DNA from: a virus
Strand: one strand, 5' to 3'
Virus genome (UHGV): UHGV-0042415
DNA length: 35,864 nucleotides
The translations under genes were made by a program, and so were the position numbers. Positions 50 through 35,850 of the stretch are shown here, in pieces (the first letter of the stretch is position 1; the number at the start of each line of letters is the position of its first letter). Below the pieces are notes generated by a model. That model was not told the DNA's origin. It was given only the letters and a program-made list of their open reading frames with translations, and made no database searches.

Positions 50-1051
50 TTACCCTCTATTGTCAAAAGGGTTCAATTCAACAGCAGCCTCTAAATGACC
101 TGGAGCAAAATGCGCATAACGCATAGTCATTTTTATATCGCTATGCCCCAGTATTTTTTGCAACACAAGAATATTTCCGCCCCGCATCATAAAATGACTG
201 GCAAACGTGTGACGTAGCACATGAGTTAATTGCCCATCAGGAAGCTCGATCTTCGCTCTCTTAATTGCAGCGTCAAAAGCCTCATAACATGGTGAAAATA
301 GCGCTCCTCGTTTTTTAGGAAGCATAGCCTGCAATTGAGGTGAAATCGGTACAGTGCGGTTCTTCTTTCCTTTAGTTTTGACAAATGTGATTCGACCGGG
401 CAGTACTTGAGATTGTTTTAATCCTTCTGCTTCACTCCACCGAGCACCAGTCGCAAGCCCAATACGAACAACAACCCCCAAATCTTTATTCCGTGACTCA
501 TCACACGCAATCAGAAGGCGTTCAATCTCATCTACATACAGAAACGCCAGTTCCTTTTCTTCCTCACGAAACTTGCGAATACCAGTCAGGGGGTTTTCAC
601 CAGACCACTCTCCAAGGCGCTTCAGTTCGGCAAAAACAGCATGTAGATATGACTGCTCACGATTAACAGTTGCTTCACTAAGTTTCTTCTTCCCCTTTGG
701 ATTCCATTCACCTGATAATCGCCGCTCCCTGTAGGTGGCAAACATATTTTTATCAAATTGAGAAGCAAACGGATCACCTAACCTAGAACAAATCGCCTCG
801 AGTTTAGCCCTTCGCTCTTCACCGGAAGACAGTGTTTTACCGTACATATCAAACCAGCGAGCAACCAACTCGGAAAGGTGGGGGCCAGAATCATCCTGAA
901 ACTCGCTCCCCAAATTACTATTCATTAAACGGCGCTCATAAGAGAGCGCCTCACCCTTAGTCGCAAACTGTTTACGAATACGCTTTCCCGATGCTCCATA
1001 CGGGTAACACTCGCAAAGCCATTTACCAGTAGGTAGTCTTCGAACACTCAT
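50..1051 (-). CDS. int: Tyrosine site-specific integrase (P2 Int-like)
   Basis: 333 aa; C-terminal catalytic region HVLRHTFASHFMMRGGNILVLQKILGHSDIKMTMRYAHF (HxxR...Y tyrosine recombinase signature); sits at the prophage edge downstream of the repressor on the same strand. Confidence 0.93.
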   Translation of the reverse strand: MSVRRLPTGKWLCECYPYGASGKRIRKQFATKGEALSYERRLMNSNLGSEFQDDSGPHLSELVARWFDMYGKTLSSGEERRAKLEAICSRLGDPFASQFDKNMFATYRERRLSGEWNPKGKKKLSEATVNREQSYLHAVFAELKRLGEWSGENPLTGIRKFREEEKELAFLYVDEIERLLIACDESRNKDLGVVVRIGLATGARWSEAEGLKQSQVLPGRITFVKTKGKKNRTVPISPQLQAMLPKKRGALFSPCYEAFDAAIKRAKIELPDGQLTHVLRHTFASHFMMRGGNILVLQKILGHSDIKMTMRYAHFAPGHLEAAVELNPFDNRG

Positions 1052-1056
1052 TCTAA

Positions 1057-1443
1057 TTAAGACTTAATCCATCCCATCATCAACATCAGAGATACCGCCG
1101 TATTAGAAACAGACTGATTTTGATATACTTTTCTATTCTTTTTTTTATCTGCGAAAGGCTCAAAGGCCATATCAAGTTGTTTAGTCAATTCCTCTGCCAA
1201 CAATTTGAGGTCATCCATATTTTTAACTTGTGTAGACAATTCTGGTGTAAGTCTTCCTTGATTATAAAGTACAGCTATAAAGTCAGCCGAGGTAGCCAAT
1301 TTGTTTTTATAAGATGCCTTTTGCCACTCAAGGGCGTTTGCCTTATGTAATGTTCCACCTTCATACCATTCAGAGGCATACCCATGAGATGCAAAAACAA
1401 ACAAGATATAAAAAAGGACTAATTTTAAATAATTACGCTGCAT
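1057..1443 (-). CDS. Exported protein of unknown function (cargo)
   Basis: 128 aa; N-terminal signal-peptide-like MQRNYLKLVLFYILFVFASHGYA; visibly AT-rich; 5 bp from int. Confidence 0.65.
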   Translation of the reverse strand: MQRNYLKLVLFYILFVFASHGYASEWYEGGTLHKANALEWQKASYKNKLATSADFIAVLYNQGRLTPELSTQVKNMDDLKLLAEELTKQLDMAFEPFADKKKNRKVYQNQSVSNTAVSLMLMMGWIKS

Positions 1444-1474: not shown

Positions 1475-2122
1475 TTACACAAAATAAATTAAAAATGTAA
1501 TCACCATACCCAAAATGAGTCCAACAATGAACACAATCAAAAATTCTTTAGTATATTCTGTTAATAGTTCACTAATGCAGTGTCTATTTTTAATATTGCC
1601 ATTGCTCTGAGATATATTTTTATTAGTCTGCTGATCTAACCACGACAATGCAGATTGCAACTGAGAACGAGTAAGATCGTTTAAACGGCCTGTACCGAAA
1701 TTGATATGGCAATATCGAAGAAGTTTTTGTCTAATTTCATTACTTTCACTGTTGCGAAGAAGGAGGCTTACAAGTAATTTACAGGCGTCATGATCCTTGT
1801 GTCGGTCAAGCATCGCATTGAGAAAGCTAATTGCGGTTGGATACTGATTCACCGTCATCTTATCGACACTATCAACACCGATTTCAGCATGAAGTTTACG
1901 CCAAACAACAAACGATTCTTCCTTGCTGGCATCAACAATCTTGTCAACCAACAACTTCAGTTGATGTCGCTGAGCCTTAACTAATGGGCGCTCATCAGGC
2001 CTACCAGAAGGGATTGCAATATTGACTGTATGCCGATCATCATATCGCTCTATCTGAATATTCTTTTCGTGGTAATCACGCCCAGCAACGCGATTGTCTG
2101 AACCGTTTGAGTTGACCGCCAT
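1475..2122 (-). CDS. Tail-anchored membrane protein of unknown function (cargo)
   Basis: 215 aa; single C-terminal hydrophobic segment EFLIVFIVGLILGMVITFLIYFV, remainder soluble; AT-rich; starts 18 bp after the repressor stop on the same strand. Confidence 0.7.
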   Translation of the reverse strand: MAVNSNGSDNRVAGRDYHEKNIQIERYDDRHTVNIAIPSGRPDERPLVKAQRHQLKLLVDKIVDASKEESFVVWRKLHAEIGVDSVDKMTVNQYPTAISFLNAMLDRHKDHDACKLLVSLLLRNSESNEIRQKLLRYCHINFGTGRLNDLTRSQLQSALSWLDQQTNKNISQSNGNIKNRHCISELLTEYTKEFLIVFIVGLILGMVITFLIYFV

Positions 2123-2140: not shown

Positions 2141-2554
2141 CTAACCCTTAGTTTCGTTATAGTCACGACCAGCAATACGATGGCCCTTGCCAGAAGCTCT
2201 TATTGTACCTGGAGCCAAACTACCAGCGGTCAAGGCTGCCAAAGCCGCCGCCTTAACAGCCAAAGGTGCAGAGCGATATATTTTAATTAGCTCAATCTCA
2301 TCTTCAGTGGCATTAGGGATGCCATGTGCACGACTACCAGAAAGTATGTAATAGACATCTACTCCGCAGCGCCTTCCCAAGAGATTCAGCATAGCTGCAT
2401 CCGGTGTAGTCACCCCTCTTTCATACTTCCCCCAAGTCTTTGTAGAAACTTCAAAAATAGACGCCATATCATCCTGAGTCATGCCAGTTTTCTCTCGTTC
2501 CTCCCGTAATCGACGTCCAATAATGACACTTAATTCCTCTTTTTCTGTTGACAT
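2141..2554 (-). CDS. HTH (XRE/Cro-C1 type) immunity repressor
   Basis: 137 aa; N-terminal HTH region LSVIIGRRLREEREKTGMTQDDMASIFEVSTKTWGKYERG; divergent from the early operon; same orientation as int as in P2 C-int. Confidence 0.8.
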   Translation of the reverse strand: MSTEKEELSVIIGRRLREEREKTGMTQDDMASIFEVSTKTWGKYERGVTTPDAAMLNLLGRRCGVDVYYILSGSRAHGIPNATEDEIELIKIYRSAPLAVKAAALAALTAGSLAPGTIRASGKGHRIAGRDYNETKG

Positions 2555-33550: not shown

Positions 33551-33676
33551 ACAACCTCGACGTTTTACTTAATATACAATAGCCTTCTGGACACGGTAAG
33601 GCAAGAACAAGGGTAAAAGATCCTTTACTGTCAGAGTTACAGGTTATACCTGTAAGCAAAAACAAAGGCATATATT

Positions 33677-34435
33677 ATGTTCAGTTTATTTTCGTTAACT
33701 GCCGGAGCAAATGTGCGCTGGCATGATTTACCTGGTAAAGGTATTCCTGTTGTTTTTATTCATGGGCTTGGCTGTTCCTCTTCTTATGAATATCCACGGG
33801 TTGTTGCAGATCCTGCATTTGGTGGACAACGAGCGATATTGATAGATCTCCCTGGATATGGATTCAGTGATAAGCCTAAAGGATTCGATTACAGCATATC
33901 CCATCAAGCTAAAGTTGTTATTGAAGTAGTAGAAACCTTAAATCTCTCACAGTTCCATATTTATGGTCACAGTATGGGGGGAAGTATTGCGATTGAAGTG
34001 GCCAGACAACTACATGAGAGAACAAGAAAGCTTGTGGTTTCTGAGCCTAATTTTCACTCTGGTGGAGGTACCTATAGCCGTAAGATAATAGAGAAACCAG
34101 AAGCAGAGTTTATTTCGCATATATATAATGAATTACTGGAGTGTGAAACATCCCCATGGAAAGGTGAACTCCAGAATGCAGCCCCATGGGCAATATGGCG
34201 AGGAGCCAAAAGTCTGGTTGATGGAACCACTCCATCATGGAGAGATATATTCCTTAATCTGCCCTGTTCACGTACACTAATTTTTGGCGAACAATCATTG
34301 CCAGACAATGATTTCCAGCAAATAAAAGAATCTGGAATATCTGTTGCAATAGTGCCAAACGCTGGACACTCCATGTCATGGGAAAATCCATCAGCACTGG
34401 CCTCAATTTTACATACAGAATTTTATAGAAAGTAA
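33677..34435 (+). CDS. Alpha/beta-hydrolase fold protein (putative esterase/lipase), AT-rich moron
   Basis: 252 aa; HG oxyanion motif (VVFIHGLG), nucleophile elbow GHSMGG, C-terminal His in AGHSMSW; markedly AT-rich with AT-rich flanks. Confidence 0.75.
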   Translation: MFSLFSLTAGANVRWHDLPGKGIPVVFIHGLGCSSSYEYPRVVADPAFGGQRAILIDLPGYGFSDKPKGFDYSISHQAKVVIEVVETLNLSQFHIYGHSMGGSIAIEVARQLHERTRKLVVSEPNFHSGGGTYSRKIIEKPEAEFISHIYNELLECETSPWKGELQNAAPWAIWRGAKSLVDGTTPSWRDIFLNLPCSRTLIFGEQSLPDNDFQQIKESGISVAIVPNAGHSMSWENPSALASILHTEFYRK

Positions 34436-34480
34436 AATAACCTATACATAGATATTGTTTCCACCAACATCATATTATCA

Positions 34481-34512
34481 AAGAGCAGGGCAAATTTACC
34501 TCCTGCTCTTTT
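34481..34512 (+). terminator. Hairpin terminator after the hydrolase gene
   Basis: aagagcagg-(11 nt loop)-cctgctctt followed by tt. Confidence 0.5.
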
Positions 34513-34788
34513 ACTCAAATTAGATGATTTTATAGCACACATTTTATGAAATATTTAAAATCTATAAACTTATAAGAACATTTTTTATCAAAACACATAC
34601 ATAATGAACAATCTCTTTTATCATAATTAGTAAATTATCACTTGATAATAAATGACATACTAAATATGCATCAGGGTTAATTTTTATTAATAGATAAACG
34701 TCCATGCCTCAATCTGACCTGATTGTTGATTGGCATATTCACTAGTACAATTTAAAATCACGATAGCAGCACATTAAGGGAGGTCGCT

Positions 34789-35049
34789 ATGTTTCGTTGT
34801 CCGCTTTGTGGCGCATCTGCCCGTATCCGCACCAGTCGTCCGGAAAATGATTCAAACACCGTGCGGCAAAAGTATTACCAGTGTAACAACCTGGAATGCG
34901 GCGTATGCTTCTCAACACTGGAAGCTTTCCATAAATTCACATCAAAACACGCCTCCGGCGTTCACTCTTCAGAAGGTATCCCGTGGCATGAGCTGCCAGC
35001 TTCACACAGGGGAAACAATCAGATGAGTTTGCCTTTACCTCAGAATTAA
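34789..35049 (+). CDS. ogr: Zinc-finger late gene transcriptional activator (Ogr/Delta family)
   Basis: 86 aa; MFRCPLCGASARIRTSR...YYQCNNLECGVCF matches the P2 Ogr Cys4 finger (MFHCPLCQHAAHARTSR...YHQCQNVNCSATF); SD aagggagg upstream. Confidence 0.9.
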   Translation: MFRCPLCGASARIRTSRPENDSNTVRQKYYQCNNLECGVCFSTLEAFHKFTSKHASGVHSSEGIPWHELPASHRGNNQMSLPLPQN

Positions 35050-35238
35050 CAGGCAGAATTGCCGGAGTAACAAAAAAGCGATAGATTACGTGCGGGTGCC
35101 TTTCGGCTGATGGTCGGAGGGAATACCCGAAGGCCGGATGTGGAAAGGCCCCGGAAAACATTTCTGTTTAACCGAGGCCCTAACCCGTCAACCTAGCAAG
35201 TGATAGGTTAGCGCCTCTCCAACAAAGGAGCAAGCGCT

Positions 35239-35379
35239 ATGTCGCAAAAATCGCTTACGGCCATCACGTTCTGCGTGACGGTAATCCTCATCATCTGGAT
35301 GCTGCACGGTTCGCTGTGTGAAATACGGATGAGCTTCTGGGGAGCGGAGTTTGCGGCGTTCTTACAGTGTAAGCAGTAA
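35239..35379 (+). CDS. hok: Hok/Gef-family type I toxin (small membrane toxin)
   Basis: 46 aa MSQKSLTAITFCVTVILIIWMLHGSLCEIRMSFWGAEFAAFLQCKQ; TM helix followed by the family signature SLCEI...AAF; SD aaggag upstream; stable hairpin gacgggga-ggcaac-tccccgtc downstream; too short for the ORF track. Confidence 0.8.
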   Translation: MSQKSLTAITFCVTVILIIWMLHGSLCEIRMSFWGAEFAAFLQCKQ

Positions 35380-35568
35380 GGAAACCGCGACGGGGAGGCA
35401 ACTCCCCGTCAATCGGTTGCCAGGGTAAGGCCGATAAGGCACCCTATCTCATAGGCATGAATAACAACCCCACAGCGTAAAAACTGCGGGATTTCTTTTT
35501 GGGACTCTCACTAGCTAGTGAGCTGTTAACTGCACATAATGCTCGCACAACAAATCATTTAAAAGAGA

Positions 35569-35850
35569 TTACTCAGCATTCTCCTGCTTCCATTGCCGGA
35601 TCATTTCATCGGTAACATCACTTTCATAACATACCACGTCATACCCTCCAGTACGGCTATATGCACTGCGTCCACCACATCTACTACCATTCCTTGCATG
35701 ATTATACGGACACGCACAATTGCCTGGATAAGATTCAATGGATTCTTTAATTATTTCTTTCTTGATCTGAGCGTCTGACTTTCCTGTTGCTGCATACCCA
35801 CTAAAAGATACCAAACACAGGCAGATTGCCATTAATAAACCACATCGCAT
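35569..35850 (-). CDS. Small exported cysteine-containing protein of unknown function (possibly host flank)
   Basis: 93 aa; signal-peptide-like MRCGLLMAICLCLVSFSGYA; AT-rich; lies right of ogr and hok. Confidence 0.55.
   Translation of the reverse strand: MRCGLLMAICLCLVSFSGYAATGKSDAQIKKEIIKESIESYPGNCACPYNHARNGSRCGGRSAYSRTGGYDVVCYESDVTDEMIRQWKQENAE

Follow-up and report, generated by a model that had tools for sequence, protein, structure and literature searches.

Just past ogr, near the right end of the UHGV virus genome UHGV-0042415, lies a 46-codon open reading frame (ORF) that the gene list of this DNA lacks. We asked whether it is a real toxin gene of the Hok/Gef family, whether it belongs to the phage or to the host, and whether the allele found here could be expressed. 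The whole stretch of 35,864 nucleotides is hereafter called the window. An earlier reading of the same letters by a model (the sequence-only reading) had proposed a Hok-family type I toxin locus at this position. Our results indicate that the locus is probably a hok/sok-type type I toxin–antitoxin cassette, carried as accessory cargo by a P2-like prophage in leuZ of E. coli and subject to R1-like RNA control.

Toxin gene

The ORF at 35239..35379 on the plus strand starts with ATG and encodes a peptide of 46 aa, MSQKSLTAITFCVTVILIIWMLHGSLCEIRMSFWGAEFAAFLQCKQ, a Hok/Gef toxin of "cluster 72" in a published catalogue (see below). The Pfam profile PF01848 (HOK_GEF) matched the peptide at 30.1 bits (E = 3.7e-07), above its gathering score of 22 bits, with residues 7–44 aligned to profile positions 5–42 of 42. 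PHROG 251 matched it with an E value of 2.5e-23. The peptide has a single hydrophobic N-terminal helix at approximately residues 5–25 (11-residue Kyte–Doolittle means of 1.9–3.1), which, together with its length, fits the description of Hok/Gef small peptides (about 45–55 aa). In addition, the seven positions conserved in >80% of Hok peptides (M1, C16, T18, L30, C31, E32, and E41 of the catalogue logo) are all kept in the window peptide, as M1, C12, T14, L26, C27, E28, and E37, and the spacings between them are identical to those of the logo (+2, +12, +1, +1, +9). A Shine–Dalgarno sequence, AAGGAG (35225-35230, plus strand), lies 8 nt 5' of the ATG.

The 46-aa frame, the good Shine–Dalgarno sequence, and the transmembrane helix with a Hok signature (hydrophobic residues at about 5–24; HOK_GEF, 30.1 against 22 bits) had all been noticed in the sequence-only reading, and the Hok-family type I toxin locus that it proposed is borne out by the profile matches and by the hok-type leader and 3' elements described below. 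Assignment to one of the named Hok proteins of strain K-12 was dropped, as the NCBIfam HokA and Hok subfamily models scored far below their cut-offs. Identity with HokA in particular was rejected: the equivalog model NF007290 reached 35.8 bits against a cut-off of 89, and the two peptides are 43% identical.

Prophage cargo

Over its final 1165 bases, the window matches four E. coli genomes of mouse origin at 100% identity, among them that of strain M8. In M8, a perfect 124-bp direct repeat, made up of the 3' 55 nt of a tRNA-Leu gene (leuZ) and 69 bp downstream, flanks the element. On the left, the repeat ends 57 bp short of window position 1, beside the integrase gene (50..1051, minus strand); on the right, it begins at window-equivalent 36322, which is 458 bp past the window end. 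Hence the prophage reaches beyond the right end of the window. The sequence-only reading had placed attR between ogr and hok; the att repeat lies instead in leuZ, and its right copy is outside the window altogether.

We joined both outer flanks into an empty yecA|leuZ junction. Other strains contain this junction as one uninterrupted sequence, with 100% identity and coverage, and it is present in 3792 of the 5426 E. coli genomes (at least 80% of the query covered). Everything between the att repeats is thus an insertion, and this comparison with unoccupied sites puts hok inside the prophage, answering what the sequence-only reading had suggested should be settled in that way. Phage records agree. 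The gene order in phage Chuche is ogr – hok – com – methyltransferase – int, and in phage P88 hok is internal, 750 bp from the end of the circular record. Taken together, the att repeat past the window end, the empty site, and the phage records make hok prophage cargo: the hok cassette is accessory cargo of a P2-like (Peduoviridae, P88/Xuanwuvirus-type) prophage in leuZ of E. coli. Of the two placements offered earlier, last cargo gene of the prophage or host locus next to the integration site, the former stands in so far as hok is cargo; it is not the very last gene, because an ORF of 93 aa (35569..35850, minus strand) follows it inside the prophage.

The DNA 3' of hok is variable. Among 55 viral loci with enough flanking sequence, 21 carried the 93-aa ORF, 11 carried com and the methyltransferase gene, and 23 carried something else. 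The homology of viral loci to the window stops either at 35444/35451 or at 35502-35512.

Two other explanations of this ORF were weighed against these results. It could be a chance open frame or a piece of an unrelated gene, given that it is only 46 codons long and that the NCBIfam HokA and Hok models stay under their cut-offs. The Pfam match lies over its cut-off and the PHROG 251 match is strong (E = 2.5e-23), however, and the frame is intact in 14 of 16 diverse relatives, shows changes that are mostly synonymous-biased, and is embedded in a conserved hok-type RNA context. We give this explanation virtually no credence; the fragment of an unrelated gene, a possibility that the sequence-only reading had itself raised, is ruled out by the Pfam and PHROG matches and by the intact ORF in relatives. 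Alternatively, the locus could be a host chromosomal gene that merely lies beside the integration site. Related cassettes do occur at chromosomal sites outside recognizable prophages, for example beside ykgM, but the 124-bp att repeat encloses the whole series from int to ogr, hok, and the 93-aa ORF, the junction lacking this DNA is contiguous at 100% identity in the genomes counted above, and the Chuche and P88 genomes hold ogr–hok internally. The empty-site comparison rules a host gene out. That the ORF at 35239..35379 is the toxin gene of a hok cassette is near certain.

Distribution and existing records

The locus had been described as unannotated, which does not hold for public records: RefSeq carries exactly this coding sequence in M8 as "Hok/Gef family protein" (WP_000078920.1), with an ogr/Delta zinc-finger gene on one side and a 93-aa hypothetical protein on the other. 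The cassette (~370 bp, 35073-35444) was found in 1751 of 5426 complete E. coli genomes, at up to 9 places per genome. It is also carried by IncI1 and IncF plasmids of E. coli, E. marmotae, E. albertii, and Salmonella, and it adjoins lom in Stx and O157 lambdoid prophages (81–83% identity). In the P2-like phages P88, Chuche, Shae_phiSM, PhiR44_2, 500465-2, P884B11, and 520873, it lies 3' of ogr. The sequence homology of the copies in Stx phages, plasmids, and other loci spans 35073-35444. A relative is encoded on 323 viral contigs of IMG/VR, and in 79 of the best 80 of these contigs ogr is immediately upstream of hok.

A 2026 preprint has catalogued 32,532 hok loci, reported their enrichment in prophages, and tested 45 representatives (bioRxiv 10.1101/2025.08.07.668861). 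Its Table S2 includes 72_1621 and 72_1589, both marked as belonging to a high-abundance cluster (bioRxiv 10.1101/2025.08.07.668861). The former has the same sequence as the Chuche phage Hok and is one residue (V15A) away from the window peptide; the latter is identical to the lom-adjacent O157 copy. In the toxicity panel of 45 homologues, only 19_179, 60_1482, and 69_1540 were non-toxic (bioRxiv 10.1101/2025.08.07.668861). This implies, going by the text of section 6 rather than by a figure, that the catalogue peptides of cluster 72 are toxic on overexpression. The catalogue covers the coding sequence only, with Mok, Sok, and the mRNA ends explicitly left out, and it makes no mention of the ogr-adjacent position in P2-like phages (bioRxiv 10.1101/2025.08.07.668861).

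Other resources added little. In PADLOC, neither Hok nor the 93-aa ORF nor the hydrolase is covered by a defence-system model, and an RNA-seq/Ribo-seq paper on EHEC lists Rfam sok matches with nothing specific to the window cassette. The 15-mer GGGTGCCTTTCGGCT, scanned over 596 Gb of genome contigs, gave chance matches in unrelated phyla only, the pattern being too short. The element is ordinary and widespread, and it has been catalogued already, as has its Hok group. The biological gain from recognizing it is small: the prophage enrichment of Hok is known and the peptide group has already been catalogued and tested.

Sense transcript

A candidate hok promoter lies at 35059..35087 on the plus strand, with TTGCCG (35059-35064) as the −35 element, a 17-nt spacer, and TAGATT (35082-35087) as the −10 element; it agrees with the sigma-70 consensus at 8 of 12 positions. 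A pattern of the form TTGCnn-17-TAnAnT stands at a fixed distance from GGGTGCC in 12–14 of 15 copies from unrelated genomic contexts. A consensus scan for sigma-70 promoters and terminators across 34900-35620 returned no promoter on either strand at its threshold; both this promoter and the antisense promoter discussed below were therefore assigned by homology and conservation. Transcription of hok would then start at about 35094.

The Rfam sok model (RF01794) matched 35094..35249 on the plus strand with 47.3 bits (E = 5.5e-09), below its gathering score of 59. The same model was applied to a genuine R1-type locus, one that encodes a Hok 100% identical to that of R1; it gave 87 bits there, also on the hok strand, and its match ended at the hok AUG. 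The model thus describes the sense hok leader, which contains the complement of Sok, and a plus-strand match in the window is just what a hok locus would be expected to give. A search for sok and for the mRNA fold-back elements, as the sequence-only reading had proposed, therefore had a mixed outcome: the leader match is present and falls under the gathering score, and the fold-back elements are predicted.

We take the body of the hok mRNA, from the tac-like element to the end of the fbi-like element, to be 35094..35444 on the plus strand; the first position is where the Rfam model starts, and the true 3' end may be at about 35500. The conserved cassette ends exactly at 35444 in unrelated contexts. 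For the terminator, the hairpin at 35469-35490 with its U-run is weak (−8.3 kcal/mol, z = −0.6) and is a candidate at most.

The RNA from 35094 to 35457 is predicted to fold at −158.9 kcal/mol (z = −5.96). Both the minimum free energy and the centroid structures contain a 15-bp closing helix, in which the tac-like 5' element (35094..35108, plus strand) pairs with the fbi-like 3' element GGCCGAUAAGGCACCC (35429..35444, plus strand), the latter being complementary to the 5' end. When shortened to 35094-35414, the RNA is predicted to refold (z = −5.33): the 5' end now pairs with the ucb-like segment at 35143-35152, GAGGC (35174-35178) pairs with GCCUC (35213-35217), and the hairpin hiding the Shine–Dalgarno sequence is absent. 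This alternative fold agrees with the consensus structure of the Rfam model. The sequestering hairpin itself (35209..35239, plus strand; −14.2 kcal/mol, z = −3.3) would hide AAGGAG and the first base of the start codon; GCCUC, which finds its alternative partner in GAGGC, belongs to the 5' arm of this hairpin. Downstream of hok, a 3' stem-loop is predicted at 35385..35416 on the plus strand (−22.2 kcal/mol, z = −5.4). Its core stem, 35389-35397 with 35402-35410, is exactly where a GC-rich hairpin had been noticed by eye. By analogy with R1 (PMC9841398), this stem-loop may protect the 3' end of the processed, active mRNA.

We aligned 16 cassette copies from different contexts and asked how well they could form these structures. 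For the full-length structure, 89.5% of cells were paired, vs 38–43% when the partners were slid, a difference that is somewhat inflated because the structures were derived from the window sequence itself. Among the relatives, 17 pairs of this structure were changed on both sides. The tac/fbi closing helices were 89% and 98% paired, with one compensatory pair each, and the sequestering hairpin was 95% paired. The core of the 3' stem-loop was paired in 99% of cells and had four compensatory pairs. In the shortened form, the tac/ucb stem was 97% paired and the GAGGC/GCCUC helix 82%, with little covariation. Most helices are invariant rather than covarying, so that the support for the structures is largely a matter of conservation. 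According to these predictions, four structures are open to the transcript and conserved among its relatives: the closing helix, the alternative stem at the 5' end, the hairpin over the Shine–Dalgarno sequence, and the 3' stem-loop.

Antisense RNA

An antisense Sok-like RNA is plausible at about 35200-35140. The predicted RNA (35140..35200, minus strand; ~58–62 nt, with approximate ends) would consist of a 5' tail, a hairpin from 35180 to 35147, and a CCUUUCC tail; a 65-nt minus-strand segment folds at −25.1 kcal/mol (z = −3.15). Its candidate promoter (35205..35233, minus strand) has TTGCTC (35233-35228) as the −35 element, a 17-nt spacer, and TAACCT (35210-35205) as the −10 element. The R1-type locus has TTGCGC-17-TATCCT at the same position relative to the hok AUG, and the hexamers are nearly invariant among the 16 relatives, with TTGACT in three copies and TAATCT in one. 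The proposal thus draws on positional homology with R1, on conserved promoter-like hexamers, and on a stable hairpin.

The hexamers agree with the consensus at only 6 of 12 positions, below the level at which the scan lists a promoter. Furthermore, the same bases also build the hairpin over the Shine–Dalgarno sequence, which makes the cause of their conservation ambiguous. Given the poor consensus, the empty scan, and the shared bases, we infer Sok here from its likeness to R1 and treat it as a prediction. The sequence-only reading had expected both an antisense Sok and a mok-like leader in 35100..35240. The former part is plausible, whereas a mok frame reaching hok is missing.

Leader frame and expression of Hok

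The leader contains an ORF of 28 codons (35110..35196, plus strand; stop codon TAG at 35194-35196), which is the truncated counterpart of a 70-codon mok-like ORF in some relatives. A second leader ORF of 21 codons runs from 35138 to 35203. From 35184 on, the frame overlapping the start of hok is open, but it has no start codon, and a search for mok in three frames with ATG, GTG, or TTG found none that reaches the hok Shine–Dalgarno sequence in the window. The earlier statement that no overlapping mok frame could be seen was correct for this copy. We are less sure that the window allele expresses Hok than that it encodes Hok, because its leader ORF ends 43 nt short of the hok start codon. R1 makes Hok only if mok is translated as far as the hok Shine–Dalgarno sequence, and premature mok stops upstream of the hok start abolish toxicity (PMC9841398).

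The window copy is not exceptional among its relatives. None of the 16 relatives has a start codon at the position of the R1 mok start (8 nt after GAGG), and an ATG frame running into hok was found in two of these diverse copies. Among the best 80 of the 323 viral loci, 19 have a frame of 70 or 87 codons from the first leader ATG (that at 35110 in the window) that overlaps hok, and three have a frame of 61 or 78 codons from the second leader ATG. All 22 of these long frames end inside hok, and the leader frames of the other 58 loci stop 19–112 nt before the hok ATG. In most copies of this Hok subgroup, the mok frame, essential according to the R1 paradigm, is missing, which is worth following up. 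In the R1-type plasmid control locus, the leader ATG and hok share a frame at a distance of 57 nt; the frame relation thus varies even there.

Alleles with open and closed leader frames are otherwise nearly identical; what differs is the length of the leader (145, 146, or 147 nt) and a stretch of 12–15 nt. This stretch falls in a hypervariable segment (35181..35199), which faces the 5' tail of the predicted Sok and determines if the leader ORF continues into hok or is closed before it. Across 42 distinct phage-linked cassettes, the summed column entropy of 35185-35194 was 9.5 bits per 10 nt, the maximum of the transcription unit; the next-highest values were those of three hairpin loops (~4–5 bits), and most 10-nt bins had 0–1.2 bits. 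In R1, the Sok 5' tail starts target recognition.

Compared with increasingly distant relatives, hok had dN/dS values of 0.13–0.54 in most pairs; two IncI1 copies gave values >1, which rest on one synonymous change. The Hok ORF is intact in 14 of the 16 relatives. Of the other two, one is an unannotated copy that starts with ATA and has its −10 element deleted, and one is a plasmid copy that carries an internal deletion. Conservation of the leader is at least that of the coding sequence (minimum, 80% vs 67%). These patterns speak for selection on Hok in lineages that for the most part have no mok frame, and they favor a functional cassette, in which control would act directly on the hok ribosome-binding site (RBS), over a silent allele.

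A structurally intact and translationally silent allele is nevertheless a serious rival, although we hold it to be rather improbable. It supposes that Hok needs a ribosome travelling on the mok-like ORF through the hok RBS, and that the TAG at 35194-35196 cuts this ORF, such that no Hok is made; the locus would then persist only as a gene pair of antisense RNA and mRNA, or would be a recent loss-of-function variant. The effect of premature mok stops in R1 (PMC9841398) fits this supposition, as does the fact that 22 of 80 near-identical relatives have a leader ORF of 61–87 codons into hok and differ mainly in the segment of 12–15 nt. In addition, the hok loci on the E. coli K-12 chromosome are reported to be inactive for the most part (earlier work cited in bioRxiv 10.1101/2025.08.07.668861). 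However, 58 of the 80 close relatives and 14 of the 16 diverse ones are also without a long ORF, and yet Hok is intact, with dN/dS mostly <0.55 across clusters. The hok gene has a strong Shine–Dalgarno sequence of its own, AAGGAG, which the predicted refolding would free without passage of a ribosome, and the leader frame varies in the R1-type plasmid locus too. We therefore prefer the functional cassette, in which the hok RBS would be controlled directly.

For such a cassette, a mechanism can be outlined after the R1 paradigm (PMC9841398, PMC4147584). By analogy with R1, the weak promoter at 35059-35087 would give a stable mRNA from about 35094, which would be inert as long as its 5' end is paired with 35429-35444. 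Slow trimming of the 3' end to the stem-loop at 35385-35416 would let the 5' end re-pair with 35143-35152; GAGGC (35174-35178), thus freed, could pair with GCCUC (35213-35217), and the hairpin that hides the hok Shine–Dalgarno sequence would open. A short, unstable antisense RNA (promoter 35233-35205, RNA about 35200-35140) would pair with the refolded leader and either block activation or trigger cleavage by RNase III. Once the antisense RNA is no longer replenished, Hok would be made and would damage the inner membrane.

Two more general ideas follow, which we put forward as a possibility on the doubtful side. Hok of clusters 72, 79, and 82 might be controlled in a mok-less manner by an RNA relay (tac/fbi, then tac/ucb, then GAGGC/GCCUC, then release of the Shine–Dalgarno sequence) that Sok would block. 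Alternatively, the hypervariable segment might divide the copies in a genome, of which there are up to 9, into Sok/hok specificity classes and at the same time toggle the mok-like frame. If the second idea is true, "armed" and "silent" alleles coexist in P2-like phages. As for its role, the cassette may serve to retain the prophage, to assist lysis at induction, or to exclude other phages; we single out none of these candidates.

Comparison with known systems

The window cassette has much in common with hok/sok (parB) of R1. Both encode an N-terminal membrane helix followed by an SLCEIR...AAF core. Both have a long structured mRNA with a tac/fbi closing helix, a tac/ucb stem, a GAGGC/GCCUC stem, and a 3' stem-loop, and an antisense gene in the leader whose promoter stands at the same place relative to the hok AUG; in the window, these RNA features are predicted. 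The refolding logic of the window RNA (tac/fbi, tac/ucb, and Shine–Dalgarno/dcb) is as described for R1 (PMC9841398). The same Rfam model matches both loci on the same strand and at the same position. Conversely, R1 Hok has 52 aa and the window peptide 46 aa, with 30% identity between them, and blastn of the window cassette against the R1-type locus detected no DNA similarity; the comparison thus rests on the Rfam model and on structure. The start of mok in R1 (an AUG 8 nt after GAGG) has no counterpart in the window, where no leader ORF reaches hok. In addition, the R1 locus is on a plasmid, whereas the window cassette is in a P2-like prophage.

Among catalogued peptides, cluster 72 (72_1621 and 72_1589) includes the one from which the window peptide differs only by V15A. 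The closest named chromosomal Hok is HokA of E. coli K-12, which is also the best NCBIfam match (43% identity). HokA shares with the window peptide the MxQK start, the W-M-x-x-x-SLCE motif, and AAFLxCK. The window peptide is 4 residues shorter, and the two belong to different 60% clusters (93 against 72).

Records of related phages might suggest yet another name. The label "MokW-like host killing" on genes of P88 and Chuche is the description of PHROG 251 and is no evidence for hokW or mok. We rejected an identity with hokW taken from such labels, as the HokW reported in PMC8621323 is different, with 30% identity and membership of a different 60% cluster. HokW, a peptide of 51 aa (MKQQKAM...), belongs to the HokD-like cluster 35; the 30% identity to the window peptide was obtained with the HokW-type peptide 35_712. 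The hokW-sokW locus of the Stx2 prophage Sp5 (E. coli O157:H7 Sakai) has been shown experimentally to be a toxin–antitoxin system of type I, one that speeds lysis and phage release after induction (PMC8621323). When Sp5 is induced, the antisense RNA disappears, HokW precedes the endolysin, and phage release is halved without the locus (PMC8621323). That locus is in a lambdoid phage, whereas the window cassette is in a P2-like phage. Both are prophage-borne hok/sok loci, and hokW-sokW is a plausible model for the role of the window cassette.

The Rfam family RF01794, which carries the name 'sok antitoxin', matches the hok mRNA strand, both in the window (35094..35249) and in the control R1-type hok/sok locus of plasmid pMTY1886_IncFII (L018, 232..403), and in this bona fide locus the match ends at the hok AUG. 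Therefore, RF01794 matches identify the leader of hok, with the Sok RNA itself on the opposite strand. Within L018 344..559, a leader ATG precedes the hok ATG by 57 nt, in frame and with no stop codon between them; this frame would yield an N-terminally extended Hok instead of an overlapping Mok. The sole CDS annotated there in the plasmid record is 33 aa long.

Two copies of the cassette have decayed. The one in strain SCU-115 (L009 301..655), which is unannotated, has its start codon replaced by ATA and is missing the −10 region, and that of an E. albertii plasmid (L016) has an internal deletion in hok. A tandem pair of Hok genes (L013 1..129 and 463..603) adjoins serS in a record deposited as a 1.2-Mb 'plasmid'.

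The prophage att repeat comprises 124 bp, namely the 3' part of the tRNA-Leu gene leuZ and 69 bp downstream of it. Its left copy lies 57-180 bp to the left of window position 1 and its right copy at window-equivalent 36322..36445; both are outside the window, so the window begins and ends within the prophage. In the sequences compared, these two copies are L004 4820-4943 and L001 5623-5746. In strain Ecol_276 (L011), ogr and hok directly adjoin serS, an arrangement suggesting that phages of this type have a second integration site.

Between hok and attR, the window prophage encodes a 93-aa ORF (35569..35850, minus strand) whose N-terminus resembles a signal peptide and whose C-terminal part is rich in Cys. 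This ORF matched PHROG 27544 (E = 1.5e-59), a family of unknown function, and had no match in Pfam or PADLOC. The content of this slot differs among related phages, with com and a methyltransferase gene in Chuche and a different small ORF in P88.

At the other end, two ORFs next to the integrase gene, of 128 aa (1057..1443) and 215 aa (1475..2122), both on the minus strand, sit in a stretch of 37% GC and are followed by an ORF for an HTH repressor-like protein (2141..2554). Neither matched Pfam or PADLOC, and they are possibly further cargo genes.

A low-GC block (33551..34748; GC about 0.39-0.46) separates the gpD tail gene from ogr and contains an alpha/beta-hydrolase gene (33677..34435), after which the DNA is AT-rich. 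This block looks like a second cargo insertion, because in P88 and Chuche the ogr region comes almost directly after the tail gene.
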